UHGV virus genome: UHGV-0072288
DNA: 13,766 bases
Origin: a virus
Reading direction: 5' to 3' (one strand)
The translations under genes and the position numbers were made by a program. Below are positions 145-13,766 of this stretch, one piece after another. How positions within the stretch are numbered: position 1 is the stretch's first letter; the number at the start of each line of letters is the position of its first letter. The notes under the pieces are model-generated. The model did no database searches and was not told where the DNA came from. It worked only from the letters and a program-made list of their open reading frames with translations.

Positions 145-1138
145 CTAGTCGGTGGACATTATGTGGACACTCCCACGCATAGGGTTAAATCGTATGGCAT
201 CAGTCAGATAATCTGGGGCGAAGTGAGCATATGTCATTGTTTGCTCGATTGTTGTATGACCCAAAATACGCTGTAGCGTGATGATATTCCCGCCGTTGAT
301 CATGAAATGTGTTGCGAAGGTATGGCGTAAAACATGCAGTGCCTGACCTTTCGGCAAGTCTGGCTTAATCTTACGAAGAACATCGCGAACTCGCTCATAG
401 TTGGTATCGAACAATTTCCCCGATTTGCGTGTAAGGATGTAGTCCGCGATTTCCTTCGATATCGGAACAGTACGAGCTGGGCCGGTTTTGGTCTTAACAA
501 AGGTCACACGGTTACTTATCACGTTTTCAGCTTTAAGATTACTGGCTTCACCCCCATCGTGCTCCTGTATTCAGGCAAAGAACGACAACTCTGCGATCAT
601 CCCCTGTAAGGGCATTCAGCAAATGGTGGATCTCTTCTTCGGACAGAAATGACATTTCTGTGTTTTCCAGACGTAACTTCTTCACGGCGCGAAACGGGTT
701 TTCGTGATGAAATTCTTCCATATCTATCAGCAAACTGAACATGCTGGACATGGAACAGAAATCCCTGTTTACCGTGCCAGCAGATACTCCACTATGAAGT
801 CGTTCTGCACGATATTTCATCAGAAAGTTGCGGGTAAGCTCGTACACTCTGGGTTCCGCCATTTCTCGGTTGATTATTTCCAAACGCTTTTTATATGAGT
901 CACCATAGTTGTGATTCTTTCCATGGTAGCTCCACCATAAAGAAATTAACTCGGATACAAGCCTCCTGTCTGCGGGTTTATCCTGCCATTCTTTATCGTG
1001 AAAGTTTGTCAGTACATACCGCTCGTATGCCTGTGCTTCCGCCTTTCTGTCAAATTTGCGTCGAATCCTTCTTCCTGAGGTTCCGCGCGGTCTAACGTCC
1101 ACTTCAAAACGACCATCATCAAGCTTCTTAATCGACAT
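145..1138 (-). pseudogene. int: Tyrosine recombinase/integrase (P2 Int-like), reading frame broken by a +1 frameshift in a C5 run (551-555)
   Basis: Two adjacent minus-strand ORFs (548-1165 and 145-522) in different frames. N-terminal part MSIKKLDDGRFEV...LCLNTGARWG-stop; C-terminal part carries the catalytic tyrosine-recombinase region (HVLRHTFATHFMINGGNIITLQRILGHTTIEQTMTYAHFAPDYL). Removing one C from 551-555 gives a contiguous ~331-aa ORF (...GARWGEASNLKAENVISNRVTF...). Start set at ATG 1138 (GGAGGG 7 nt upstream) rather than the tool's 1165. Confidence 0.75.
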
Positions 1139-1204
1139 AGCGAAGCCCTCCGATGTATGAATCATTATGTAAATTTTGCGCTAACGCATAGAAAAACCAG
1201 ATGT

Positions 1205-1504
1205 TTAGCCAATTTTCCGGGTGGAACGGGATGATGTTATGTTGTCTTGCCCATCAGGGGAGAGAGACGGGGACACCTGCCCCGCAATTGGTGCCGTCTT
1301 ATCTGTCATTAACCAGAGTGTATATTTTTCAAACATATGTACCTCTATAACACTTTCTAAGACTTCTGCACGAGCTGGCTGATGGCCAGTTTCGTACTTT
1401 TTTATTGTTCCAAGAGCTACCCCAGTAAGCTCTGAAAAATCTTTTTGAGTTAACCCTTCAGCTTTCCGGATCTGCCGGAGTTTCTCCGCATAATTTCTTG
1501 ACAT
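1205..1504 (-). CDS. C: Immunity repressor, P2 C-like (99 aa, HTH)
   Basis: 99-aa ORF with helix-turn-helix (LTQKDFSELTGVALGTIKKYETG) and C-terminal KYTLWLMT...APIAGQ pattern resembling P2 C (recalled from memory). Lies upstream of int on the same strand and divergent from a cox-like gene, as in P2. Confidence 0.75.
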   Translation of the reverse strand: MSRNYAEKLRQIRKAEGLTQKDFSELTGVALGTIKKYETGHQPARAEVLESVIEVHMFEKYTLWLMTDKTAPIAGQVSPSLSPDGQDNITSSRSTRKIG

Positions 1505-1612
1505 GGTTCTTGTATCGCAACTATTATTGGTTCTTACAAAAGAACCTTGACAAAAGAACCCTAGAACGACTTAAAGCGCCCTAGGAACCCAAACTAACGA
1601 AGGATACCACAG
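1505..1612. promoter_or_regulatory. Divergent Pc/Pe-type promoter-operator region between C and cox
   Basis: -35-like TTGACA at 1547-1552. Inverted repeat GGTTCTTACAAAAGAACC at 1529-1546. Repeated hexamer AGAACC/GGTTCT at 1505-1510, 1529-1534, 1541-1546, 1555-1560, 1584-1589. SD GAAGGA at 1599-1604, 8 nt before the cox ATG. Confidence 0.5.
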
Positions 1613-1894
1613 ATGAAGGAACCAGCAGAAAAGGCGCTTTCAGAGTTGGTGACCCCTGAGCTTTTTGCCGAATATATAGGCAAAACGCCTGCTGCAATTC
1701 GCAAAATGGCCACGGCTGGAAAACTGCCGGTAATCCGCATGAAAGACCCTCTAAATCCATCAAAAAAAGGTGGGGAAATCTATATCCATCGGGGGGAATG
1801 GGATGCTTATGCCATTCATTTGGCTCAAATTGCCCCGCCTGAATGGCATGACTGGAAGAACCGTTTATTCACGAAAGATAAAAGTGCTCGTTAG
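1613..1894 (+). CDS. cox: Cox-like small DNA-binding protein (excision/lysogeny-lytic switch)
   Basis: 93-aa ORF divergent from the repressor gene with a good SD. Position and size match P2 Cox / 186 Apl. Sequence similarity not verified. Confidence 0.55.
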   Translation: MKEPAEKALSELVTPELFAEYIGKTPAAIRKMATAGKLPVIRMKDPLNPSKKGGEIYIHRGEWDAYAIHLAQIAPPEWHDWKNRLFTKDKSAR

Positions 1895-1920
1895 TAAACT
1901 AAATATTATTGGGGATTATC

Positions 1921-2256
1921 ATGAAGACTAAATATGCCACGCTGATTCGTAGTCTGTTGCAAAACTATCACGCTCAGGCAAAAACCATTGATAAAGAAAC
2001 ATTCTCTGTACATAGCGATGGCTTGCAGTTAATGGAATTAAACATTCAGCTTGCAAAATGCCTTGAGGGTATAACCTCCACTGCTCGCTTTAATAATGAT
2101 AGTGATGATTTTGAAGAACTGCACAAAATCACGCTTATGGTATTTGGCGGAAATATACCAACTGAAAATAACATTTCCGGTCTTATGTCGCTGGCTACCA
2201 CAGCGTTAAAAAGTAATAACTCGCATCTTAAATCTGTTGCAGCTTCCCAACGTTAA
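1921..2256 (+). CDS. Hypothetical protein (AT-rich early-region cargo)
   Basis: ATG at 1921 preceded by GGGGA (1911-1915); the tool's 1909 start is TTG. 111 aa. Lower GC than flanking phage genes. No recognisable motif. Confidence 0.5.
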   Translation: MKTKYATLIRSLLQNYHAQAKTIDKETFSVHSDGLQLMELNIQLAKCLEGITSTARFNNDSDDFEELHKITLMVFGGNIPTENNISGLMSLATTALKSNNSHLKSVAASQR

Positions 2257-2265
2257 GGAACCGAT

Positions 2266-2835
2266 ATGAAACATTTAATGATTGACCTTGAAACAATGGA
2301 TAATAAACCGACTTCTGCGATTGCTTCTATCGGTGCTGTATTCTTTGACCCTGAAACTGGCGAAATGGGTGAACAGTTTTATCAACGTGTCAGCCTGGGC
2401 AGCTGTGTAGGCCACGGTCTCACTATGGGGTCAGAAACCGTATTATGGTGGATGCGTCAGGATGCCGAAGCGCGTAGCGAGCTGCTTAATGACGATTGTC
2501 TGGACTTGCCTCTGACGTTAGCTAATCTGGAAGCTTTTATTACTGAGCATTCTGACCCATCTAAAGTACAGGTATGGGGGAATAGTGCAGCGTTCGACAA
2601 TGTTATTTTACGTAATGCATCAGAGAAATGCGGGTTTGCCGATCCACTTTGGTACTACTGGAATGACCGTGATGTAAGAACGGTTGTTGAACTGTCAAAA
2701 ACACTTGGGCTGAATGTTCGTAATATTATTAAGTTTGATGGTGTTAAACATCACGCTTTATATGATGCCATTCATCAGGCTAAAGTTGTTTCTTATGTCT
2801 GGATGTATCTTGTAAAAATAGCCAGTGTGAAATAA
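2266..2835 (+). CDS. DEDDh-family 3'-5' exonuclease (DnaQ/epsilon-like)
   Basis: 189-aa ORF with Exo I motif MIDLETM (D-x-E), Exo II-like WGNSAAFDNVIL and Exo III HHALYDAIHQA (H-x4-D). SD AAGGA 6 nt upstream of ATG. Confidence 0.8.
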   Translation: MKHLMIDLETMDNKPTSAIASIGAVFFDPETGEMGEQFYQRVSLGSCVGHGLTMGSETVLWWMRQDAEARSELLNDDCLDLPLTLANLEAFITEHSDPSKVQVWGNSAAFDNVILRNASEKCGFADPLWYYWNDRDVRTVVELSKTLGLNVRNIIKFDGVKHHALYDAIHQAKVVSYVWMYLVKIASVK

Positions 2836-2837
2836 CG

Positions 2838-3056
2838 ATGCTTACAGTGACCTCTCATGCAAGTGAAAGTGTCATTCACAAGGCATTTTCAGTGCTGACA
2901 GAATATTACAACGGCAAAAAGGTATATCAGGTTATTAAGCCAAAACATTATTTCTCTGTTCATGTTTCTTATCGCTGGCGATTACTGAGTAAGGATAAGG
3001 GCAGAAGCTGGGAACTAATGACACATGAGCGATATAACAAGCAGTACAGAATATAG
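2838..3056 (+). CDS. Hypothetical small protein (72 aa)
   Basis: ATG 2 nt after the exonuclease stop, co-directional, ends just before the primase-helicase gene. No recognisable motif. Confidence 0.4.
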   Translation: MLTVTSHASESVIHKAFSVLTEYYNGKKVYQVIKPKHYFSVHVSYRWRLLSKDKGRSWELMTHERYNKQYRI

Positions 3057-3095
3057 TTTTTGCCTTTTACCCATTATTTCACATCTGGATTATTT

Positions 3096-5753
3096 ATGAA
3101 CGAAACGATACAACAGGACGTTGTGCGCCGTCTTGTTCGGGACTTTGAATTTAAAGAGCGGGATAAGTATTTGCAGCAGGGCGTTTGCCCTGCCTGTCGT
3201 AAGCGCGAATTATTTACCAGCATAGAAAAGCCCTGGATTCTGAAATGTGGCCGTGAAAATAACTGCGCACATCAGATTGTCGTGAAAGAGCTGTATCCGG
3301 ATATCTTTGAAGACTGGTCAAAACGTTACCAGACCACAGAAGATAACCCCCATGCAGTAGCTGAGGCGTATCTGCGCGAGGCCAGAGGGCTGGAGACTGA
3401 GCCATTAAAAGGCTGTTTTACCCAGGGTGCATTCGTGAAAGATGGCATGGGGTCGGCAACGGTCAGATTTTCGCTGTCATGCGGTGCAACATGGGAGCGC
3501 ATCATTGACCAGCCGCAGCGCTTCGGTAAGCAGAAAGCCAACATCAGGGGAAGCTATGTCGGTCACTGGTGGGTTCCTCCCTTTATCAACCTGCAGGAAG
3601 TGAACGAAATCTGGATCACTGAGGGAATCTTCAACGCGCTGAGTCTGTGCCAGGTAGGGTTACCTGCAGTTGCCACACTGAGCAGTAACAACTATCCGCT
3701 GGCCGCACTGGATACGCTGGCCAAAGAACTGGGTGAAAAACCACGTCCACGTCTTGTATGGGCGTTTGACGGCGATAAAGCCGGCACAAAGCACACACTG
3801 GCGTTCGCTGCCCGTAGTGATGCTGCAGGATGGAAAACTCGTGCCGCGCAGCCGGTGAAATCATCGGCATCGCTGGACTGGAATGACCTGTTGTTACGTA
3901 ACCGGTTCAGTAAGTCGGACATTAAAAATTATCGCTACTATGGCGATCTCCTTCTGGCAAAAAGCCCGACTGAGAAAGCGCTGCTCATGCATCAGCATAA
4001 CGAGTGGCACTCGTTCTACTTTGAGCATAACTCCCGCATGTACTGGTTTGAGCTGGATCTGGACAGGTATATGCGAGCCTATGAGCGCATCACCAATACC
4101 GGTACCGAAGTGGTGATGGAGTGGGAGGCCAAAGAACGGGCGGTTAAAGAGTCAGGCGGCGTGACCGAAATAGCTAACTGCTGGCTGACGCCGCTTTACT
4201 TTCAGCGGTCTGAACCTACGGACGAGTCCTGGTATTACGTGAAAGTCAGTATGCCTAACCGGCCAGCCGTGAAAGATACTTTCACGGCTAATCAGCTCAC
4301 CAGCTCCGCCGAGTTCAAAAAGCGTCTGCTGCACATCGCCAAAGGGGCGGTGTACACAGGCAGCACCAAACAGCTGGATAAGTTCATCCAGATGCGCCTC
4401 CCTGAAATCAAAGAGGTAAAGACGCAGAATTTCATCGGCTATAACAAGGATTATGCCGCCTGGTTGTTTAACCGCGTGGCCGTTTGCGATGGCCGGCTGT
4501 ATGAGATGAACGACGAGGATTACTTCGAAATCAACAGTGCCAGCGTTAAGAGCCTGAGCCTCACGCCGGCGCTGGATCTGAATCCGAAGCTGAACGAGTT
4601 TACTACGGGTTGGGTAGACGATATCTGGACGGCATTTGGTGAAAAAGGGTATGTGGCGCTGGCGTTCTGGCTGGGGTCGCTGTTTGCCGAACAAATCCGC
4701 GAGCGTGACAAGTCATTTCCGTTTCTGGAAATCGTGGGCGAGCCGGGGACAGGTAAATCCACGCTGATAGAATTTCTCTGGAAGCTCGCCGGCCGTGAGG
4801 AATACGAAGGGTTTGACCCATCTAAATCTACCGCCGCCGCGCGTGGCCGTAACTTCGCCCAGGTCGGTAATCTGCCGGTTGTGCTGATTGAGGGCGACCG
4901 TACTACCGATAACGCCAAGCAACGCGCTTTTGACTGGGACGAGCTGAAATCACTGTATAACGGTCGTGCCTCCCGCGCCGTGGGTATCAAATCGAACAAT
5001 AACGAGACGTATGAGCCGCCGTTCAGGGGAAGTATTGTGATAGCGCAAAATGCCGACACAGACGGCAGCAAGGCGTTTCTGGAGCGTATCATCCACATCT
5101 ATACCGACAAGCGCGGCCAGTCCATTCAGACGCGCCACGCTGCAGAACGACTTGAACAACTCCCCGTTAGCCAGGTATCCGGATTCACATTACTGGCCAC
5201 CATGCGCGAAAAAGAAATCATGCAGACGTTCGGCAGGGGGTACGAGCGAGCTAGGAATGAGCTGGAGTCTAATAGCAGTATTCGCCATATCCGTATTGCA
5301 AAGAATCACGCGCAGCTTGTGGGCTTGCTGGAGGCGCTTGCACTTGTTGTACCGGTGCCGGTTGAACGTATAGAAAAAACGCGTGAAGCCATCACCGCGC
5401 TGGCCGTTGAACGTTGTCAGGCACTTAAAAAGGATCATCCTCTGGTGCAGGAGTTCTGGGAGCTGTTTGATTACTTGGATGAACTGGCACCTTATGGCAT
5501 CAATCATTCATCAGATGAAAATGAAATCGCGGTTAATTTCAATCACATGGAAGAGGTCGCCGCAGCACACCGGCAGCGTATTCCGTTCACGTTAACGGAA
5601 ATTAAAAAGCTGCTTAAAAACGGCAATGAGCGCCGGTTTATCAGACAAAGCACCACGCGCAGCGCGGTAAGTGAGCGCCATAATCGTGGTAAAGGGGATA
5701 TGCAACGGATGCCGGAAACATTCCGCTGCTGGATATTTGGCCGGGAAAAGTAA
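3096..5753 (+). CDS. Replication primase-helicase (zinc-ribbon + TOPRIM primase + SF3/D5-type helicase), P4 alpha-like architecture
   Basis: N-terminal Cys4 zinc ribbon (CPAC...CGRENNC). TOPRIM motifs (WITEGIFNAL; VWAFDGDKAG). C-terminal P-loop NTPase with Walker A GEPGTGKST, Walker B PVVLIEGD and motif C IVIAQNAD. The tool starts at TTG 3060; ATG 3096 (MNETIQQ) preferred. Confidence 0.85.
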   Translation: MNETIQQDVVRRLVRDFEFKERDKYLQQGVCPACRKRELFTSIEKPWILKCGRENNCAHQIVVKELYPDIFEDWSKRYQTTEDNPHAVAEAYLREARGLETEPLKGCFTQGAFVKDGMGSATVRFSLSCGATWERIIDQPQRFGKQKANIRGSYVGHWWVPPFINLQEVNEIWITEGIFNALSLCQVGLPAVATLSSNNYPLAALDTLAKELGEKPRPRLVWAFDGDKAGTKHTLAFAARSDAAGWKTRAAQPVKSSASLDWNDLLLRNRFSKSDIKNYRYYGDLLLAKSPTEKALLMHQHNEWHSFYFEHNSRMYWFELDLDRYMRAYERITNTGTEVVMEWEAKERAVKESGGVTEIANCWLTPLYFQRSEPTDESWYYVKVSMPNRPAVKDTFTANQLTSSAEFKKRLLHIAKGAVYTGSTKQLDKFIQMRLPEIKEVKTQNFIGYNKDYAAWLFNRVAVCDGRLYEMNDEDYFEINSASVKSLSLTPALDLNPKLNEFTTGWVDDIWTAFGEKGYVALAFWLGSLFAEQIRERDKSFPFLEIVGEPGTGKSTLIEFLWKLAGREEYEGFDPSKSTAAARGRNFAQVGNLPVVLIEGDRTTDNAKQRAFDWDELKSLYNGRASRAVGIKSNNNETYEPPFRGSIVIAQNADTDGSKAFLERIIHIYTDKRGQSIQTRHAAERLEQLPVSQVSGFTLLATMREKEIMQTFGRGYERARNELESNSSIRHIRIAKNHAQLVGLLEALALVVPVPVERIEKTREAITALAVERCQALKKDHPLVQEFWELFDYLDELAPYGINHSSDENEIAVNFNHMEEVAAAHRQRIPFTLTEIKKLLKNGNERRFIRQSTTRSAVSERHNRGKGDMQRMPETFRCWIFGREK

Positions 5754-5766
5754 CGGTTCACTAGTG

Positions 5767-5831
5767 CCTAACTTTATTGTTAGGGGAAGGAGCGAACATT
5801 GAAGCAATAGGGGCGTTATCTTTATTGCTTC
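5767..5831. terminator. Two hairpins between convergent primase-helicase and glycosyltransferase genes (candidate terminators)
   Basis: Hairpin CCTAAC-TTTATT-GTTAGG at 5767-5784. Hairpin GAAGCAATA-(13 nt)-TATTGCTTC at 5801-5831 followed by a T-rich stretch on the + strand. The second overlaps the stop of the minus-strand gene. Confidence 0.4.
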
Positions 5832-6541
5832 ATTCTTATTTTAAAGTTCTTTAATTTACCGTACAGAGTATCCCGCAGGGAAAACGAAGGAACCCAATCA
5901 AAACCAGTACGCCAGGGGCGTGGACTGCCATGAAAGCAAACAACCGCCACATTATCAGGGACTTTCCCTGTCGCAGCCTCAGAGGCTAAATTTGCATTGA
6001 AGCCAATCATCGAGGGGGTGGCGATGTCACATTTATAACTAACAATTGAGCCAGGAATGATATCCTGCCATAGGGCTGGTTTTATGATGCTACCGAGAAA
6101 TCCCTGATCACCCCATTTGTCTTCAGTCTGACAATTGCGCATAATTTTCTCAGGATCAATAATGAATTGTTCCCAAATCGTCTTTTTAATCGACGCCGGA
6201 ATCATCATTATTGATGAGTTTACTCTTGAGGCATGGTTAAACTCCCGAAGCATTGTAAATTTCTTCGCACCTTCGAAAATATGAATATCTCCCGTGACCA
6301 CAACATCTACGTCAAAATAGAGTAAATCTTGGTCTCCAAGGACTGGGTGATTAGGATTAAATAGTTCAATTTTAGACCACCATCCCGGCCAGTTATAAAG
6401 CAAAGGGGTTGTGTTAACTCCAGGAATATTATCTGCATCGGTTAAACATATAGATGGAATATCTTTGAACTGACGATGAAGCCATTGGGCGTGTTTAGGG
6501 GTAAACTCTTTACTACATTTAAGAACTGAGACTATTAACAT
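5822..6541 (-). CDS. GT-A fold nucleotide-sugar glycosyltransferase-like protein (GT8-like motifs), hotspot cargo
   Basis: 239-aa ORF with strong SD (GGGAGG 6 nt before ATG at 6541). DxD motif after a hydrophobic strand (LLYFDVDVVV). C-terminal FHGSPRPW resembling the GT8 H-x-G-x-x-K/R-P-W motif. Noticeably AT-rich. Confidence 0.6.
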   Translation of the reverse strand: MLIVSVLKCSKEFTPKHAQWLHRQFKDIPSICLTDADNIPGVNTTPLLYNWPGWWSKIELFNPNHPVLGDQDLLYFDVDVVVTGDIHIFEGAKKFTMLREFNHASRVNSSIMMIPASIKKTIWEQFIIDPEKIMRNCQTEDKWGDQGFLGSIIKPALWQDIIPGSIVSYKCDIATPSMIGFNANLASEAATGKVPDNVAVVCFHGSPRPWRTGFDWVPSFSLRDTLYGKLKNFKIRMKQ

Positions 6542-6600
6542 AAGATGCCTCCCAAAATTTGGAAAGATAATATCATGTTTAGGAGGGGGGGACTATTAAT
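6542..6600 (-). promoter_or_regulatory. Putative promoter/5' region of the glycosyltransferase gene, containing a homopolymer tract
   Basis: SD GGGAGG (complement of 6548-6553). -10-like TATTAT (complement of 6568-6573). G7 run on + strand at 6585-6591 (C7 in the gene's sense) where the spacer/-35 would lie. No convincing -35. Confidence 0.3.
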
Positions 6601-6655
6601 CACTTGGTCATTCATCGACGTTGATAGATGGGAATCTGTTACATCTCAGAAAATA

Positions 6656-6680
6656 AAAGCACCGGTAGCGGTGCTTTTTT
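6656..6680. terminator. Bidirectional rho-independent terminator
   Basis: Stem GCACCG/CGGTGC (6659-6664 / 6669-6674), extendable with A-T pairs, loop GTAG. T6 at 6675-6680 on the + strand and AAAATAAAA at 6650-6658 (U-run for the minus-strand transcript). Immediately follows the stop of the Ogr-like gene. Confidence 0.65.
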
Positions 6681-7010
6681 CTATGCGGCAGCAGTGCCGT
6701 CCTGACTCAGAAACTTTAACATCAGCTGCTTTTGCTGGATATCAAGGCTGTTACAGATAGTGGCGATCAACGCATCGCTGGATTTGGCGCTGGGGCTGAT
6801 GGTATGTGAGAATGTCATATTCATCACAAAAGTGTGACCACATTCAACATCGGTACACGCGCAATATAAATCCGACAGTTCCTTGTGTTTTCGGGCTGTT
6901 TTTTTGATAACAGCCCTTGCCTCACATACCGGACAGTAAACCTTCATTACCCGCATATCCATCGCTCCGGAAGTTGGAAAACGATGATATTTTAGCCTTT
7001 TTGCGAACAT
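6681..7010 (-). CDS. ogr: Ogr/Delta-family zinc-finger protein (late-gene transcription activator family)
   Basis: CPVC-x22-CACTDVEC-GHTFV pattern matching P2 Ogr (CPLC...CQNVNCSATFI, from memory). Start ATG at 7010 overlaps the portal stop (TAATG) with SD GGAAGGTG upstream. Alternative internal starts at 6956/6947 would give an Ogr-sized ~88-91 aa protein. Confidence 0.65.
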   Translation of the reverse strand: MFAKRLKYHRFPTSGAMDMRVMKVYCPVCEARAVIKKTARKHKELSDLYCACTDVECGHTFVMNMTFSHTISPSAKSSDALIATICNSLDIQQKQLMLKFLSQDGTAAA

Positions 7011-8028
7011 TAATCACCTTCCAGCTCACTGTCTTTCAGGAAATTAAGGTACAGGTGGGGCGGTACATCACTTTCCTGTTCCACTGCGGCGGTAAACATG
7101 CGCTGAATGGGCAAAATTTCTGCTTTGCGGTAGGTTTTGGACGCTTTCTCAACATCTCCCATTACTGCGCCGTTCGTCGGGATAATCCCCGCCAGTCCTG
7201 CCGGGAATCGATGCGCGGTCAGTACGTCCTGGGCGCTGATGCTCTTGATGTTCTGAAACTCATCTTTGGCGCTGATATCCCCAATCGGGATAAATTTGAT
7301 GCCGTCCGGATCGCCTTTGGGGATGTTCACAAACATGGTGCTGAAGTTCCCGATCCCCTTTGACTGCTCCAGCTTCTGAATAATTTCTTCTTCCACTTCA
7401 TCAGTCATATTTGGGTCGTTACAGTAGATCATGCCACCTGTGTGTCCGCCGTTATGGTAGTAACGCCGACGAAAAATTGTTGCCTCACCGTTAAGCAGGG
7501 CAGAATGGATACCGCTGATATAATCCGGCAGACCATAAATCGCCTGTTGCGGATCGTACTGCCTGAGAAAAATAATATCTTCAGGCGGATAAATCATCGG
7601 TTCACCCTGCTGCAGTACCACAAACTCCCCGGTCTTACGCTGGCGGGTGAAGTGGAAGCCGGGGGTTACGGTCCCCCCCCCCCCCCCCAGCCGTTACGCA
7701 CTTTCAGAATGGCCACATCACCGAAGGTCAGCCAGTCGAACACGGCTGCACCAAGCTGTTCATGCGTCAGTCCGCCGTCTTTATAGTTTGCCGTCACCAT
7801 ATTGCGACGGGCATACAGCACACCGCCGTGCTGCGCGTTCAGGTTCACCAGTTGCGCCAGCGCCAGCCGGTCAATCGGGAGCGTCCAGTGTTCCGCTTCA
7901 TTGTCATACCAGACGTCTGTGTAGTTTGTGCCGGTCGTCAGAATGGGTTCCGGTTTACCCAGGGTAATAAGGCTCATATGGCGCGGCTTGCTGGCGGTGC
8001 GGCGTTCCCTGTATTTCCGTTTTTTCAT
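7010..8028 (-). pseudogene. Q: Portal protein (P2 gpQ-like), frame interrupted by a 16-nt homopolymer
   Basis: Two minus-strand ORFs (7666-8028 and 7010-7621) together give ~340 aa, matching the ~344-aa P2 portal. The upstream frame reads ...LKVRNGWGGGGGP-stop through the G16 tract. The downstream frame is open back through the tract (...GGGGGTVTPGFHFTRQRKTGEFVVLQQGEPM...). ATGA overlap with the terminase stop at 8025-8028. Confidence 0.8.
7673..7688. repeat. Homopolymeric tract C16 (+ strand) = G16 in the portal coding sense
   Basis: Direct count: 16 consecutive C at 7673-7688. Tract lengths of 14 or 17 would join the two portal reading frames; the observed 16 does not. Confidence 0.95.
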
Positions 8029-9158
8029 GCTGCTTTCCCTAAGTTACCCCAGCGTGATTTTCGCTGGTTTTCAAAGTTTAATGGCTCGTTGTCAATGGCA
8101 TGGGCGATAGCCCAGAAACTGTCTGCGTGTCCTGTTTCTGCTGTGCGATCGGCGACGAAAGTCATTGCGTTGCCGCTGGCCGTGGACGTACGGCGGATGG
8201 TCATAAAGCTGGCGGCGATTTCGGTCTTCTCCTTATCCCATTCCACGCGGCCGTCTTCGATAACGTCGATCATCTTCATCACCAGACGATTTTTGGTCTC
8301 GACGCCGTAGCGGATCGCCACTGCCTGACGCATGGCAAAGTGCTGAACGTCTTCAAAGACACCGCTACCCAGTCCAGTGATATCAATGCCGATGTAGGTC
8401 ATGTTGTACTGGCCAAACAGCTTCTTAATCTGTGCCGCCTGCCACTTCCAGTTCATCCCCTGCCAGTGGAATACACGCAGTACCCGAAATTTTTCGCCGG
8501 CCACTATCGGCGGCGCGATGATCACGAAGGTGGAGGTGTCTCCGCTGCGAGCCGGGTCATAACCCGCCCACACTTCACGGTTGCCGAACGGCCGGGGCAG
8601 GTTTTCGTCATGATCCTCCCAGAAATACCAGGTTGCACCAATCTGGCGGCTTTTCAGGATGTTCCTGATTTGCTGATGAAGATTAGCGCGAAGGTGTTTC
8701 TGGTAACCGAAAAGGTGCTCCAGCGCGAACCGGTCAAAATCTTCCTGTGTCAGTCCGCTGATGTCGTTCTTTTTGTACTTGCCACGTTTCCGGGGCTTTT
8801 CGTCGCCACCGGACTGACGCGCCGGCGCATCATTTTCACTGTGTTTAATTTCTGCCAGCTTTTCCTGATGCTTATTGTGCTGTGCACGTAGTTTCACCAG
8901 GTGAGAAACGAGACTGTCCAGCTCCCGCAGCTCCAGCTCCGATTTCCCTTCACGTAATGTCAGTGACTGAATGCGACGGTTTAATGCATCTTCGGTGGAT
9001 TCATGACTGAGTAATTCCGCCCAGCAATATTTCTCCGCCCAGTAATAGACAATGCGTCTGTTAGGCAGATTAAGTTCGCTGGCAATTTCCTGCGGGGTAT
9101 AGCGTTTTAAATAAAGCGCCCGCGCAACGCCTTTTAATTCTTCTGAATATTTAGCCAT
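8025..9158 (-). CDS. P: Terminase large subunit (P2 gpP-like), apparently shortened: N-terminal HTH plus C-terminal nuclease, ATPase core largely missing
   Basis: N-terminal HTH (YTPQEIASELNLPNRRIVYYW). Deviant Walker-A-like KSRQIGAT followed almost immediately by nuclease-type motifs (AGYDPARSGDTSTFVI; YIGIDITGLGSG; HADSFWAIAHA). 378-382 aa versus ~590 aa recalled for P2 gpP. Start uncertain (GTG 9173 or ATG 9158, neither with a good SD). Confidence 0.65.
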   Translation of the reverse strand: MAKYSEELKGVARALYLKRYTPQEIASELNLPNRRIVYYWAEKYCWAELLSHESTEDALNRRIQSLTLREGKSELELRELDSLVSHLVKLRAQHNKHQEKLAEIKHSENDAPARQSGGDEKPRKRGKYKKNDISGLTQEDFDRFALEHLFGYQKHLRANLHQQIRNILKSRQIGATWYFWEDHDENLPRPFGNREVWAGYDPARSGDTSTFVIIAPPIVAGEKFRVLRVFHWQGMNWKWQAAQIKKLFGQYNMTYIGIDITGLGSGVFEDVQHFAMRQAVAIRYGVETKNRLVMKMIDVIEDGRVEWDKEKTEIAASFMTIRRTSTASGNAMTFVADRTAETGHADSFWAIAHAIDNEPLNFENQRKSRWGNLGKAA

Positions 9159-9301
9159 GCACACATTATGCACGGGCGTTTGTATATTAAATCCCGCTTT
9201 ATTTCTGATGTGTTCGGCTAATAGCCTATATCCGAAATGAAGTGAATGCGGCGGTTAATTTTATTGGCGATACTGAAAACCGCAGCATGAACGGAGGCAA
9301 T
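9159..9301. promoter_or_regulatory. Divergent late-promoter region between terminase (P) and scaffold (O) genes
   Basis: Position equals the P2 divergent P/O late-promoter interval. Strong SD GGAGG at 9294-9298 before the O ATG. No TGT-N12-ACA Ogr-type dyad found by eye. Confidence 0.35.
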
Positions 9302-10141
9302 ATGTCAGGTTCACAACTGGCAACAAACTGGATTTGTATCGCCACTGCGGGTGAAACGGTTGATAAGCGATTTATTGAAGAACAATGGTTGCTTGATGCC
9401 GCTGAATTATATGACCCCTCTTTGTATACCGCGCTGTTATGGCCGGAACATTCCCGTAATTTCGGGAATATGGGGGAGGTGCTGGAAGTAAAAGCCGAGC
9501 GGGATGATGAAGGTATTCTTCGTTTATATGCCCGCCTCTGTCCGGCGATTTCATTGCTACAGGCAAATGCAGACGGTCAGCTTTTATTTTTATCACCGGA
9601 GTTTACACCGGACGGCAATTTCAGAAATACCGGGAAAACCTATCTTGAGGGACTGGCCATTACTGACAGTCCGGCCGGGGTAAGCACCACACGGTTACGT
9701 TTCAGCCGCACCAGGGGAAAACGCATCGGACCATACAAGCCGCTGGCGTTTGATGAAGTCAGGGAATTTAAAAAGGAAAAGGGAATGTCAAAGACAGCGA
9801 AAAAGGGCTGGCGCCATTTTTTCAGTATCGAAGAACCGGAGCAGACCCCGGAGCAGGAACCTTCACAGTCTGATGCCTTACAGGCGCTGGCTGAAGCGCT
9901 GGATGCCATTGATAAGCGCGTATCTGCTATTGAAACCCGTCTGGGTGAGGCGGAAGAAGCGGTATCTGATGTGCAGGACGATGTGGACACCGTGAAGGAA
10001 GTAGTGGACACCGAAGATTTTGCGCGTCTGGTGGGGAACCTGCCGGAGCTGGTGAAAAACTTCAGCAAGCTGAATAACAAAGTTACTCAACTGCCGGACA
10101 AGAAATTCAGCAAGGGCAAAAAAGGCTTCAATTTCCTGTAA
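9302..10141 (+). CDS. O: Capsid scaffolding protein (P2 gpO-like)
   Basis: 279 aa from ATG 9302 with GGAGG SD; the tool's 9242 start is GTG. N-terminal region resembles gpO and the C-terminal half is acidic/coiled-coil (EEAVSDVQDDVDTVKEVVDTEDF). Sits between terminase and major capsid genes. Confidence 0.75.
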   Translation: MSGSQLATNWICIATAGETVDKRFIEEQWLLDAAELYDPSLYTALLWPEHSRNFGNMGEVLEVKAERDDEGILRLYARLCPAISLLQANADGQLLFLSPEFTPDGNFRNTGKTYLEGLAITDSPAGVSTTRLRFSRTRGKRIGPYKPLAFDEVREFKKEKGMSKTAKKGWRHFFSIEEPEQTPEQEPSQSDALQALAEALDAIDKRVSAIETRLGEAEEAVSDVQDDVDTVKEVVDTEDFARLVGNLPELVKNFSKLNNKVTQLPDKKFSKGKKGFNFL

Positions 10142-10175
10142 GGGATAACACTACTTTTCTTTAAGGAAAAAGAAT

Positions 10176-11204
10176 ATGCAATTAAATGCGAAAGCCCGTG
10201 AGTTTCTGCTTCAGTATCACACCGGGCTGCGTGAATCCTACGGGGCGACCGACAGCGAACGCTGGTTTGCACTCACCGACCCCAAAGAAACCCAGCTGCG
10301 CAATGCGCTGATGGAGCAGTCTGATTTCCTGAATCTGATCACCGTTGCCGATGTCGATCAGCTGCAGGGGCAGGTGGTTCCGGTTGGCAGCTCTGGCCTG
10401 TATACCGGGCGTGTACTGGATGGCCGCTTCCGTAAGAAAGTGGGCGTGAGTGGTAATGATTACAGTCTGGTCGAGACCGACTCATGCGCCGCACTCACCT
10501 GGCAGTTGCTTTCTGTCTGGGCGAACGCCGGCGATGAAAACGAGTTTTTCCAGCGTGTTCAGGAGTTCACCAATCAGGCGTTTGCGCTGGATATGCTGCG
10601 TATCGGCTTTAACGGTACCAAAGTGGCCGAGACCACGAACGCGGAAACCAACCCGAACGGCGAGGATGTGAACAAGGGCTGGCATCAGATCGTCAAAGAG
10701 TGGAAGGACGGCCAGCAGATCATCACTGATGCGGTGGTGCTTGACGGTGACGGGAAAGGCGATTACGTGTCGCTGGATGCAATGGCCTCCGACCTTATCA
10801 ACGCCAAAATCCCGGCACAGTACCGTAATGATCCACGCCTGGTGGTTCTTGTCGGCGCTGATCTGGTCGCGGCGGAGTCGTTCCGTCTGTATCAGAAAGC
10901 AGACAAACCCACGGAGAAGATCGCCGCGCAACTGCTGTCTGACAGCATCGCCGGCCGCACGGCTTACGTACCGCCGTTTATGCCAGGCAAACGCATGATT
11001 GTTACGACACTGCCAAACCTGCACATCTACACCCAGCGCGGCACGCGTCAGCGTAAAGCGGAGTTTGTGGAAGACCGTAAACAGTACGAAAACAAATACC
11101 TGCGTAACGAAGGTTATGCGGTTGAGTATCCGGAACTGTACGCCGCGTTTGATGAAAGTGCGGTAGCTATCGGGGCACCTGTCGCGCCTCCGGCAGGCGA
11201 GTAA
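10176..11204 (+). CDS. N: Major capsid protein (P2 gpN-like)
   Basis: 342-aa ORF directly downstream of the scaffold gene with SD AAGGA. Size and position match P2 gpN (~357 aa). Confidence 0.75.
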   Translation: MQLNAKAREFLLQYHTGLRESYGATDSERWFALTDPKETQLRNALMEQSDFLNLITVADVDQLQGQVVPVGSSGLYTGRVLDGRFRKKVGVSGNDYSLVETDSCAALTWQLLSVWANAGDENEFFQRVQEFTNQAFALDMLRIGFNGTKVAETTNAETNPNGEDVNKGWHQIVKEWKDGQQIITDAVVLDGDGKGDYVSLDAMASDLINAKIPAQYRNDPRLVVLVGADLVAAESFRLYQKADKPTEKIAAQLLSDSIAGRTAYVPPFMPGKRMIVTTLPNLHIYTQRGTRQRKAEFVEDRKQYENKYLRNEGYAVEYPELYAAFDESAVAIGAPVAPPAGE

Positions 11205-11214
11205 GGGGGATTTA

Positions 11215-12252
11215 ATGCAACTGTCACCGGCACAGCGCCACAGCGCACGAATTGAAGCGGAGCGGTTACTGCGACAGCAGCAGTCTCTGGACACGGAAAC
11301 CAGCCTGCATATTCAGATTGTCGCGCTGGAGAAAGATGTCGCCGCAGCTGCAGCGATTGAAAGCCGCGCTGAGCGAATGGAATTTAAGCGTGATGTGCTG
11401 TTACCGCGCTGGATGCCAACCGCGCAAGCCGGGACGGTTATCCAGACAGAGCGCATTAACGGTCGCGTGTATGAGCTGGCCACCAGTGAGGATGTAGTGA
11501 TCGCTTCCGGTACGGCCTGCGCATTACTGCCGGTAAAAGCCACCGGCACCGGGGGCGCATATAACCTTGCGCCGGGATATTACCGCATTCTGCCGGTTGC
11601 CGTTGACGGTATCAGCCACGTGGCCAGCGAAGAAAACTGGCTGACCGTACCGGGCGCGGATGAAGAAAGTGATGACGAGCTGCGCGAACGCTGCCGCAAT
11701 CAGTTCAATCTGGTGGGGAATTACCACACTGACGCCGTTTACCGGTCGATGATTGCCGGCGTTGCAGGGCTGAGTATTGACCGGATTTTCTTTGAACATG
11801 AAGCGCCGAGGGGACCCGGTACCGCCAACGCGTATCTGTTGCTGGACAGCGGGGTGGCTTCTTCGCCGTTCGTGGATGCCGTCAATGACTATATCAACAC
11901 GCAGGGGCATCACGGCCACGGTGATGATATGCAGTGCTATCCCATGCCGGAAACGCTTCATGATCTGTCCGTCACAGTTTATGTCAAAAATCTGGCCAAT
12001 TTCAGCGATGAGGACAGGAAAACCCTGAAGGACGGGGTGGAGAACATGATCCGCTGTGCTTTTCGTGAGAATGCTGATTATGACGTCAGGAAGACGTGGC
12101 CATATTCGCGTTTTTCCTTTTCTCAGCTGGGGCGGGAGATCCACAGGACATTTGCTCAGACGGAATCACTGTCTTTTTCACTGGGTGATATCACCAGCGA
12201 ACTGAGTGTTCCACGCCTGAAATCGCTTGCGGTTGTTGTTGAAAATGAGTGA
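11215..12252 (+). CDS. Chimeric ORF: terminase small/endonuclease subunit (gpM-like) N-terminus (~73 aa) fused to a baseplate protein J-like body
   Basis: N-terminus MQLSPAQRH...KRDVLLPRWMP matches the gpM start (MTSPAQRH...KRELLPFWLPW, from memory). The remainder (...ESDDELRERCRNQF...GVASSPFVDAVNDYI...) resembles P2 gpJ (...ESDTDYRLRIQQAF...GVASEDLLAVVRNAL...). Implies an in-frame deletion of the M-to-J interval. Confidence 0.5.
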   Translation: MQLSPAQRHSARIEAERLLRQQQSLDTETSLHIQIVALEKDVAAAAAIESRAERMEFKRDVLLPRWMPTAQAGTVIQTERINGRVYELATSEDVVIASGTACALLPVKATGTGGAYNLAPGYYRILPVAVDGISHVASEENWLTVPGADEESDDELRERCRNQFNLVGNYHTDAVYRSMIAGVAGLSIDRIFFEHEAPRGPGTANAYLLLDSGVASSPFVDAVNDYINTQGHHGHGDDMQCYPMPETLHDLSVTVYVKNLANFSDEDRKTLKDGVENMIRCAFRENADYDVRKTWPYSRFSFSQLGREIHRTFAQTESLSFSLGDITSELSVPRLKSLAVVVENE

Positions 12253-12583
12253 GTTCCTGAAAAAGCTGGCCGGGATGGTGCTTCCTTCCTGGATGAACAA
12301 AGGCGAGCCGGCGAAGCTGCTGAAAACGGCGCGGCGGTTCTGGACTGAGGTTTACGGCTGGGTTACGTGGCCAGTGAATCAGTTCGATCCGCTGACGTGT
12401 ACGCCGGCATTACTGAACCTGCTGGCGTATGACCGCGATATACCGACCTGCTTTTGCGCTGGTTTACCGGTTATGTTGAACGTTCACAACCAGCTGAAAA
12501 CGGTTATCAGCGTCTGTTCATTCGTGAGCTGGCCGGTGTTTTTGAAAGGATGTGGCCATGTTCATTTCAGCACCCGACATTAA
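12245..12583 (+). CDS. Tail protein I-like (gpI / YmfQ family), C-terminal part doubtful
   Basis: ATG 12245 overlaps the upstream stop (ATGAGTGA). N-terminal ~65 aa (...VNQFDPLTCTPALLNLLAYDRDI) resembles gpI (...WNPDTCPANLLPWLAWAFSVDRWD). After ~12440 the frame is Cys-rich and atypical, while frame 2 opens at 12433 and stays open to the window end. Confidence 0.45.
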   Translation: MSEFLKKLAGMVLPSWMNKGEPAKLLKTARRFWTEVYGWVTWPVNQFDPLTCTPALLNLLAYDRDIPTCFCAGLPVMLNVHNQLKTVISVCSFVSWPVFLKGCGHVHFSTRH

Positions 12584-13766
12584 GGGATGTAGCCGGCTGG
12601 CTGACGGAAAACAGCGGGATCGGTGTCAGTGTACCCGATGTGTCTTACAGCGATACTCCGATCCCCCATTTCACCCATAACGGTACCGGCTATCAGTTGC
12701 TGAACAACCTGGGCAGGGCATTCAGTATCCAGGATTACATCTGGTACCAGTTGCCTGATGGTTCGCTTTACGTCGGCGGTGCTGAAAAGTCACTGTTTAC
12801 CGGTCGTCCGGTCGAAGTGCCGGCAGAGTTCAGCCAGGGGGCTGCTGGCGGGAATACCATAACGTTACCGGTGATCCAGACGATACGACCCGGCGTTGAG
12901 CTTAACGGTGAACGGGTCACCAAAGTCCATCTTACAAATGACACGATGACTATCACCTGGACACCCCGGAACCGCGTCACAGGCAGCCCCCTTCAGAAAA
13001 CACCGACACAACGACAGATTGAGAGCCATTATCCGGAACTGGCTTCCGGGCTTCATCTGCCAAAGATGGCCAGAGTGGTGGCACATACTGAACCCGTGAA
13101 AAGTGGTAATTTTGCCGATCCATTCCGGCCACGTTATGCCGTGGACGTTCAGCTGCTTGACGCAGACGGAAACCCGGACAATCAGACGCCTGTTTACTCA
13201 GCGGTGCCGCTGCCGGTGCCAATGGCCGGGAATGATTCAGGTATGTTTCAGTTTCCGCCAGAAGGGACGCTGGTTGAGGTTGCATTCACGGGAGGCAGAC
13301 CGGATAAACCCTTTATCAGGCAGACGCTGCCGGATGGTACCAGCCTGCCGGACGTTAAACCCGGTGAGCAATTGCAGCAGCAGAGGGAAGAAGTATCCCA
13401 GAGGGTGACTCAGGCTGGAGACTGGGTAAGGCAGACCGATCAAACCATCAGTGAAACATCGATGGCGCGAACCGTAAAAGCCGATACGGAGCAGCGCGAA
13501 CTGGTCAGCCGTGAAACCACGGTGAAAGCCACGGACAAAACCACGGTACTGGGAACCACCACACTGCTGGCCGGAGCCATCCAGCAGGTAAGCGCCGGTG
13601 ATTATAGCCAGGCGGTGAAAGGTAACAGGCTGGCCAGTATTGAAGGAAACGAAGAAACGGACATAGCAGGACAGCAGTCCACTAAAGTGGGCGGTGCTAT
13701 AGCCGTGGAGGTTGGCGAAAGCCTGACAGAGAAGATTGCCGCACTGCGTAAATCAGTGGCCGCCGG
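12550..13766 (+). CDS. Tail/baseplate spike-like protein with gpV/gp5/VgrG-type OB-fold motif and beta-helix-like repeats; partial at the window end, start uncertain
   Basis: Frame 2 is open from 12433 to the window end. Contains ...MFQFPPEGTLVEVAFTGGRPDKPFI..., matching the gp5/gpV/VgrG OB-fold signature, followed by Thr/Val/Gly-rich repeats (TVKADTEQRELVSRETTVKATDKTTVLGTT...). Candidate starts: ATG 12550 (SD abuts the ATG), GTG 12640, ATG 13066. Confidence 0.35.
   Translation, partial: MWPCSFQHPTLRDVAGWLTENSGIGVSVPDVSYSDTPIPHFTHNGTGYQLLNNLGRAFSIQDYIWYQLPDGSLYVGGAEKSLFTGRPVEVPAEFSQGAAGGNTITLPVIQTIRPGVELNGERVTKVHLTNDTMTITWTPRNRVTGSPLQKTPTQRQIESHYPELASGLHLPKMARVVAHTEPVKSGNFADPFRPRYAVDVQLLDADGNPDNQTPVYSAVPLPVPMAGNDSGMFQFPPEGTLVEVAFTGGRPDKPFIRQTLPDGTSLPDVKPGEQLQQQREEVSQRVTQAGDWVRQTDQTISETSMARTVKADTEQRELVSRETTVKATDKTTVLGTTTLLAGAIQQVSAGDYSQAVKGNRLASIEGNEETDIAGQQSTKVGGAIAVEVGESLTEKIAALRKSVAA

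Follow-up and report, generated by a model that had tools for sequence, protein, structure and literature searches.

What do three small, AT-rich genes contribute to a P2-family prophage when they stand between cox and the replication gene? The question is raised by positions 1900 to 3060 of UHGV-0072288, a stretch of viral DNA of 13,766 nucleotides that was analyzed over its whole length and is referred to here as the window. The window is a defective, Evevirus-like prophage of Escherichia coli, inserted beside pheA/pheL. A sequence-only reading had described the interval as an early cassette in which a DnaQ-like exonuclease gene is flanked by genes for two unknown small proteins, and had placed it where P2 carries gene B. 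The three genes are here called ORF1, EXO, and ORF3 (ORF, open reading frame), and they appear to belong neither to the core replication functions nor to classical lysogenic conversion. They are best read, in brief, as a nonessential accessory module of the early region that works on DNA ends or on foreign DNA. The interest of the locus lies in the prophage early-operon context that it gives to EcD, a published exonuclease, and in the frequent, constrained exonuclease alleles without an active site that are paired with a protein of the RelE/ParE fold. The features of the early region are the following.

1205-1504, minus strand: P2 C-type immunity repressor, 99 amino acids, HTH_3 (PF01381, E value 1e-9; phrog_147, E value 4e-34)
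1498-1527, plus strand: Pe-like early promoter, TTGACA-18-TATTAT (promoter scan, 11/12 match)
1613-1894, plus strand: cox (excisionase/repressor), first gene of the early operon (PF10743 Phage_Cox, E value 8e-25)
1921-2256, plus strand: ORF1, helical protein of P2-family early operons, 111 amino acids (phrog_7058)
2266-2835, plus strand: EXO, DEDDh 3'-5' exonuclease of the DexA/Rv2179c family, 189 amino acids, catalytically complete class A allele (PF16473)
2310-2786, plus strand: recombining core of the EXO gene (allele-swap segment), ends approximate (nucleotide identity profile)
2838-3056, plus strand: ORF3, RelE/ParE-fold protein, 72 amino acids (PF24732 ParE_like)
3096-5753, plus strand: Toprim/DUF5906 primase-helicase of the phiCTX orf37 type, 885 amino acids, last gene of the operon (phrog_1139, E value 0; Toprim_3, E value 3e-11)
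5800-5832, plus strand: terminator-like hairpin ending the early operon (14-bp stem and T run)

The three ORFs were found where the cassette had been placed, between cox and the replication gene, all on the same strand and filling the interval. The start of ORF1 is the RefSeq start at 1921, with a TTG at 1909 as an alternative start upstream, and the gaps along cox, ORF1, EXO, ORF3, and the primase gene are 26, 9, 2, and 39 nucleotides. With orthologues from Salmonella, Enterobacter, Pseudocitrobacter, and phage ESSI2_ev239 (synonymous divergence, dS, of 0.1 to 1.4), the ratio of nonsynonymous to synonymous substitution rates (dN/dS) is 0.02 to 0.05 for ORF1, 0.05 to 0.09 for EXO within the same allele class, and 0.03 to 0.09 for ORF3. 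These are genuine, strongly constrained genes and not chance ORFs. The interval is AT-rich as described, though moderately so, with a guanine-plus-cytosine (GC) content of 40.3% versus 49.9% for the window, 45 to 47% for int, C, and cox, and 52.4% for the primase gene. The low GC is carried mainly by ORF1 (38.7%), ORF3 (38.8%), and both ends of EXO, the core of EXO having 45.0%. As a segment it is ordinary, and RefSeq already labels a 3'-5' exonuclease and a ParE family toxin-like protein in it.

A hidden Markov model (HMM) search bore out the DnaQ-like assignment of the central gene. EXO matches PF16473 (Rv2179c-like) with an E value of 1.1e-67 and 227.6 bits, against a cut-off of 27, with residues 2 to 179 spanning positions 1 to 177 of the 177 in the profile. 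The DEDDh set is complete (D7, E9, D111, H162, and D167), and its five residues align with D7, E9, D119, H186, and D191 of DexA. EXO should be a DEDDh exonuclease and is predicted to be active in this allele. It is an acidic protein (isoelectric point [pI] of 5.2, charge of -8); neither EXO nor the ParE-like protein has a match in NCBIfam. The best solved relative of EXO is a 227-residue "Exodeoxyribonuclease" (8KEL/8KEN; E value of 2e-9, residues 4 to 179), taken as T4 DexA because the positions at which its two deposited sequences differ are exactly those of the S87/D90 mutant in PMC12153337. EXO and T4 DexA have the same DEDDh catalytic residues and share a WN.RD.RT motif, but they are only about 28% identical, the 227 residues of DexA include extra loops, and EXO lacks D90, a tetramer residue of DexA. 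L83 of EXO aligns with that D90, D80 with S87, and W132 with W152; the residue aligned with D169 is a G or L, and W132 is not followed by an acid at +11 to +17, the loop alignment being uncertain in both cases.

The likeness of EXO to Rv2179c of Mycobacterium tuberculosis, the founder of PF16473, consists of HMM family membership over the full-length domain (1 to 177). Rv2179c is a chromosomal exoribonuclease, and the literature search returned nothing relevant linking Rv2179c or PF16473 to phage, or DEDDh enzymes to antidefense. A P2-family early operon with a stand-alone DEDD exonuclease is not in itself new, since phage 186, the second model of the family, encodes one of 194 amino acids (NP_052286) at the same early lytic position, annotated as "unknown function; not essential." That protein differs from EXO in being an RNase_T protein (PF00929, E value of 1e-17) whose similarity to EXO is marginal (E value of 0.022), and it lies between DksA-like and DUF5405 ORFs upstream of A, so that the next gene is DUF5405 and not a ParE-like gene. 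In the phage 186 locus (L126), the exonuclease ORF is at 4891-5475, and farther upstream that operon carries the small gene dhr, an inhibitor of host DNA replication. A PF16473 homologue also occurs in a lambdoid prophage of E. coli WCHEC115106 (locus L016, 3013-3561), amid a Rad52/Rad22-type annealing protein gene, ssb, and an anti-RecBCD gene. This recombination-module context suggests that the protein handles DNA ends in recombination.

The promoter region follows the design of P2. The -35 element (1498-1503) and the -10 element (1522-1527) are accompanied by GGTTCTT direct repeats at 1505-1511 and 1529-1535 that flank the -10 element, laid out as O1/O2 around the -10 element of P2 Pe; inverted AGAACC copies are found past the promoter, at about 1541-1566. 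The scan revealed no convincing internal promoter and no intergenic plus-strand terminator before 5800, and the other terminator-like site 3' of Pe, a 6-pair stem at 3730-3749, lies inside the primase gene. The layout is consistent with a single C-repressed early transcript that would carry cox, ORF1, EXO, ORF3, and the primase gene.

The likeness to P2 extends to the integrase (Int), C, and Cox, which are 47%, 39%, and 38% identical to their P2 counterparts and occupy the same genome place. In contrast, blastp found no similarity of ORF1, EXO, ORF3, or the primase to any P2 early protein, including B, orf78, orf80-83, and A; the primase is 41 to 47% identical to the primases of phiCTX, RSY1, and Smp131. 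The similarity to P2 early genes thus ends with int, C, and cox, which indicates that the whole orf78-B-orf80-83-A block has been replaced. The replacement proposed by the sequence-only reading therefore holds, but not as a replacement of B alone. P2 uses a rolling-circle nickase and a DnaB-loader partner, whereas the window encodes a Toprim primase-helicase. In P2-like phages, the recognized defense hotspot is the gpA-gpQ interval (Rousset et al. 2022, PMC9122126). The cassette is instead found upstream of the replicase, with a gene content that is invariant in close relatives, and the hotspot-equivalent region of the window (5754-7010) contains a glycosyltransferase-like gene and ogr.

Positions 1500 to 3300 are 100% identical to E. 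coli HZ13 (NZ_CP128609) and at least 99.7% identical in all 19 carriers among 5,426 complete E. coli genomes, every one chromosomal. Variability within E. coli is uninformative because the 19 carriers are near-identical and effectively clonal. In more distant comparisons, the order ORF1-EXO-ORF3-primase is kept in 7/7 close loci from seven genera (phage ESSI2_ev239, Pseudocitrobacter, Salmonella, two Enterobacter, "Candidatus Erwinia dacicola," and Cedecea) and in every one of the 31 primase-type IMG/VR contigs that extend far enough upstream. One primase-type locus (L064) has the ParE-like gene and lacks EXO. Phages phiCTX and RSY1, distant relatives with the same primase family, carry other small genes in the slot, with no exonuclease and no ParE-like gene. 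Moreover, the EXO-ORF3 pair precedes P2-A-type nickase genes in about 30 IMG/VR contigs, in a 186-like E. coli prophage, and in Klebsiella phage ST16-OXA48phi5.4, Reipivirus being among the carriers, with identities down to 35% for EXO and 39% for ORF3. The presence of the pair beside A-type nickases and its absence from phiCTX and RSY1 show that it is not tied to the replicase. The pairing of EXO with the ParE-like gene is ancient in P2-like phages, and within its own phage lineage the cassette is fixed and not a variable insertion.

Within this constant gene order, the exonuclease itself varies. ORF1, ORF3, and the primase are 90 to 98% identical between most close loci, whereas EXO identities are bimodal, at either 82 to 96% or 41 to 48%. 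In 60-nucleotide windows, nucleotide identity to ESSI2_ev239 (locus L002) and to an Enterobacter locus (L008) goes from 85 to 97% down to 33 to 60% and back to 88 to 97%, and the drop is confined to approximately 2310-2786; the first 15 or so and the last 16 or so EXO codons keep 85 to 97% identity. The confinement of the drop to the core indicates that the EXO core has been exchanged by recombination within conserved ends. The sequence-only reading had named, as the outcome that would speak against it, close homology of all three genes to a known replication module with no variability across related prophages; the gene order is indeed invariant, but the exonuclease core is swapped between alleles.

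The swapped alleles differ in their active sites. The window carries the intact class, whereas class B alleles (ESSI2_ev239, the Enterobacter locus L008, and the Cedecea locus L011) lack D111, H162, and D167; class B also has new conserved Cys/His positions, C-P-S-x-H and N-H-A-x-H. A census of the 62 EXO genes that lie directly upstream of a ParE-like gene, and of the wider family, gave the following counts for the five catalytic residues, alleles that have lost residues being termed dead.

Primase-type loci: catalytic set intact in 19/31, loss in 12/31
A-type loci: intact in 5/29, with two further dead alleles on contigs without a determined replicase type
All 62, dereplicated at 95% identity: intact in 9/34 clusters, dead in 25/34
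All 62, grouped at 60% identity: 8 groups, of which 2 have only intact members, 5 have only dead members, and 1 is mixed
120 best family homologues, mostly in other prophage contexts: all five residues in 115/120, not in 5/120

The dead alleles are full length, and in unsaturated pairs their ratio of nonsynonymous to synonymous differences (pN/pS) is 0.11 to 0.15, compared with 0.09 to 0.13 for intact alleles; they are maintained proteins and not decaying genes. About three-quarters of the dereplicated ParE-paired alleles thus lack DEDDh residues under the same constraint, which points to an undescribed noncatalytic function. Since purifying selection maintains dead alleles, what is conserved in the exonuclease-fold protein is probably binding, of DNA ends or of a partner protein, with hydrolysis as an optional extra that the window allele has kept. 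Because the core is swapped between conserved gene ends, active and dead alleles share one genetic background and offer natural experimental material. Genes deposited as "3'-5' exoribonuclease" in ESSI2_ev239 (gp30) and Klebsiella phage ST16-OXA48phi5.4 (gp09) miss two to four of the five DEDDh residues, and on sequence grounds this annotation is probably wrong for the phage genes with such losses (L002, 4572-5132; L008; L011; L012; and many IMG/VR loci). In the insect symbiont "Ca. Erwinia dacicola" (locus L010, 4627-5192), EXO is split over two overlapping frames, and the C repressor is cut short; ORF1, the ParE-like gene, and the primase gene are still full length.

EcD comes from a published study of T4 DexA and an "uncharacterized E. 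coli exonuclease," whose strategy is named HREX (Kang et al. 2025, Nucleic Acids Research, PMC12153337). EcD is reported there to degrade T4 DNA containing 5-hydroxymethylcytosine (5hmC) and not unmodified double-stranded DNA, and D169 of DexA is called key for 5hmC recognition, the acid being less conserved. The sections consulted mention no neighboring gene of EcD, and the word "prophage" occurs 0 times in PMC12153337. EcD (GenBank HAK9828821.1) was traced through its published primers and the statement that residue 78 is alanine. In several IMG/VR contigs, a 189-residue PF16473 ORF begins with an exact match to the forward primer; residue 78 of this ORF is alanine, and its 3' end is 1 nucleotide off the reverse primer. 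The reverse primer, which as printed is 1 base off the natural sequence, had no match in viral contigs. The traced ORF is the probable EcD.

The probable EcD locus (L123, 6164-6970, IMG/VR contig 2671181127_000013) lies in a P2-like early operon beside integrase and repressor genes. The exonuclease is followed after 11 nucleotides by a PF24732 ParE-like ORF (E value of 4e-18) and then by a Dam methylase gene. It matches PF16473 with an E value of 1.6e-48 and is 36% identical to EXO over 184 residues (E value of 3e-38); like EXO, it has the full DEDDh set and the conserved tryptophan and lacks an equivalent of DexA D90, with A78 where EXO has L83. It differs in being another allele or lineage, which starts with MIDTET, and in having the Dam methylase downstream instead of the primase. 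EcD is very probably the positional orthologue of EXO, judging from sequence and gene order. Although published as a bacterial defense gene, EcD appears to be an early-lytic gene of a P2-like prophage, which changes how the published result should be read.

Of the two small proteins that had been called unknown, ORF3 has an identifiable family, and ORF1 does not. ORF3 matches PF24732 ParE_like with an E value of 8e-17. Its AlphaFold model is confident (predicted local distance difference test [pLDDT] of 91) and has the RelE/ParE fold, although the Foldseek matches have weak E values and a sequence search of solved structures gave nothing significant. Residues W47, L49, L50, S51, G55, W58, H63, E64, Y66, and N67 are invariant across diverse phage members, and the protein is basic (pI of 9.9, charge of +8). 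The gene has no visible Shine-Dalgarno motif and starts 2 nucleotides past the EXO stop codon; its translation is probably coupled to that of EXO. The RelE/ParE toxins RelE, YafQ, HigB, YoeB, and ParE have 84 to 103 residues, whereas ORF3 has 72 and one N-terminal helix fewer, and sequence identity to them is 2 to 20%. Unlike a type II system of this kind, ORF3 is internal to a five-gene phage lytic operon. No antitoxin gene with a DNA-binding domain lies beside it, neither ORF1 nor EXO has an antitoxin-family match in Pfam, NCBIfam, or PADLOC, and no autoregulated promoter of its own was found, the nearest candidate being a 9/12 consensus site inside the ORF3 gene. Homologues without EXO follow a methyltransferase gene (Salmonella phage SI7) or genes for small helical proteins and also occur outside Peduoviridae. 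In ESSI2_ev239, the ParE-like gene (L002, 5135-5353; record positions 23854-24069) is 93% identical and unannotated in the deposited genome.

ORF1 is a helical protein restricted to P2-family phages. It matches phrog_7058 (E value of 1e-43) and phrog_2549 (E value of 2e-10) and has no match in Pfam, whether as a single sequence or with all 20 alignment members, nor in NCBIfam or PADLOC. A profile search of 1.84e9 representatives retrieved six proteins at an E value of 0.001 or lower, comprising three full-length members, two fragments, and one short repeated match in a protein of 1,104 residues; with only three full-length members found, the family is narrow. The AlphaFold2 model (pLDDT of 73) is a bundle of three to four helices with a disordered tail. 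Foldseek against the Protein Data Bank gave nothing at an E value below 0.001, with designed helical bundles as the best matches, and the sequence search of solved structures gave nothing significant. The model, a generic helical bundle, thus gave no function from the fold, and kinship with DUF4761, which is of the same size and occurs in A-type operons, was ruled out (hhalign probability of 0.3%). Weak relatives in other P2-like early operons, reached only through gene context and hhalign, have E values of 7.5e-5 and 1.1e-4. Short relatives of 78 to 90 residues (L053, 2698-2970; L064, 2019-2255; and similar loci) share an N-terminal MK..Y..L...LL..YH motif and a C-terminal G-[NDE]-[IV]-P motif and sit in P2-like early operons with the ParE-like gene and without the exonuclease, which indicates that ORF1 is part of a wider, undescribed family. 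The close form of ORF1 occurs only with the Toprim primase type.

The reading preferred here, with a probability of roughly 0.45, is that the three genes have nonessential accessory roles in the early phase and are expressed along with the replicase upon derepression, EXO acting on 3' DNA ends. When the C-repressed Pe fires, the three proteins would be made together with the replicase; the EXO allele of the window would bind and trim free 3' DNA ends; and the ParE-like protein, made by coupling to EXO, would act with or beside it. The phage 186 exonuclease in the same slot is a precedent for nonessentiality. Several points weigh against this reading. The promoter scan is a match to consensus only, and a weak internal promoter is possible. 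EXO and ParE-like alleles are not strictly coinherited, and ParE-like genes occur without an EXO neighbor, so the adjacency may be inherited gene order and not functional coupling. Furthermore, EcD alone, from a leaky plasmid without induction, protected cells from T4 in the published account (PMC12153337), which fits defense better than lytic housekeeping.

The last of these points leads to an alternative that we consider unlikely, a prophage defense of the HREX type, in which EXO at a low level in the lysogen or cryptic prophage would degrade T-even DNA of the 5hmC type, with ORF1 and the ParE-like protein as bystanders or helpers. EcD cuts T4 DNA and protects uninduced cells, as reported in PMC12153337, and is the probable positional orthologue of EXO (36% identity, E value of 3e-38). 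EXO keeps the W152 equivalent (W132) and has the tetramer residue D90 replaced by L83, core-confined allele swapping resembles that of arms-race genes, and P2 itself excludes T-even phages via tin. The EcD result, however, comes from plasmid expression in one study, and EXO lies inside the Pe operon behind P2-type operators, with no predicted promoter of its own. With no plus-strand terminator between cox and EXO, expression in the lysogen is not predicted; that a defense gene should be expressed there is a criterion of this analysis and not one of PMC12153337. The known P2 hotspot is elsewhere, between gpA and gpQ, no acid aligns with DexA D169, and most paired alleles lack the nuclease residues. 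The dead alleles lend themselves better to the idea that the pair is a toxin and its partner, although this is less probable still: a RelE/ParE-type toxin would hit host translation or gyrase early in lytic growth, and EXO would bind, hold, or target it, which would explain why the fold survives without an active site. The fold, the opposite charges (-8 for EXO, +8 for ORF3), and the coupling are all compatible with such a pair. Against it, ParE-like genes elsewhere follow a methyltransferase or small helical proteins and not EXO, the ParE-like gene stays nearly constant while EXO alleles are exchanged, neither a DNA-binding domain of the antitoxin type nor a separate promoter is present, and ORF3, with 72 residues and 2 to 20% identity, falls short of the 84 to 103 residues of the solved toxins. 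A somewhat broader proposal, likewise unlikely, is that P2-family phages have repeatedly repurposed the DexA fold, mostly in inactive form, as the noncatalytic partner of a mini RelE/ParE effector; the two would form an unrecognized early-lytic two-protein module, either toxin and partner or targeting subunit and effector, of which EcD would be one active member. If the pair were such a toxin-partner or DNA-end-targeting module, it would be a new early phage function in a very common prophage family of Enterobacteriaceae.

Two further explanations carry much less weight. A dedicated replication accessory module for the Toprim replicon, serving end processing, proofreading, or origin loading and replacing P2 B and orf80-83, would account for the position of the genes directly upstream of the primase in the same operon, for an order that is invariant with primases 86 to 100% identical, and for the restriction of the close ORF1 form to this primase type. 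It is nevertheless very unlikely, as phiCTX, RSY1, and other phages with primases of the same family lack all three genes, the primase-type locus L064 has the ParE-like gene without EXO, the EXO-ParE-like pair also stands ahead of A-type nickases, and the analogous phage 186 exonuclease is annotated as not essential; an enzymatic role in replication is further opposed by catalytic loss in 12/31 primase-type loci. Least probable of all is the counter-defense role suggested by the sequence-only reading, whose interpretation is only partly supported. EXO would here destroy signaling oligonucleotides, retron multicopy single-stranded DNA, or CRISPR intermediates, for which early lytic expression has the right timing; the allelic diversity of the core fits, and PADLOC gives a weak match to a Cas-associated DEDDh model (E value of 1.6e-5). 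DEDDh enzymes, however, need a free 3' end and cannot open cyclic signals, no homology to any described antidefense protein was found, and most paired alleles are catalytically dead.

The remainder of the window shows the prophage to be damaged outside the early operon, with defects in 145-1165, 7010-9173, and 11215-12583. The other features are the following.

145-1165, minus strand: integrase pseudogene
5822-6541, minus strand: AT-rich gene, 239 amino acids (phrog_1962)
6681-7010, minus strand: ogr
From 7010: damaged head and tail genes

The integrase gene has an internal stop, and the portal gene is split in two (7010-7621 and 7666-8028). The large terminase has 382 residues in the window versus 593 in strain HZ13, and an ORF at 11215-12252 joins the N terminus of the small terminase to baseplate J, a fusion that marks where lysis and tail genes have been deleted. 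Coverage of window positions 5700 to 13766 does not exceed 75% in any complete E. coli genome. The 239-residue gene has a GC content of 41% and matches phrog_1962, "glycosyltransferase," with an E value of 6e-81; it has no match in Pfam, NCBIfam, or PADLOC. Its place, with the replicase on one side and ogr/portal on the other, is that of the gpA-gpQ defense hotspot of P2-like phages.

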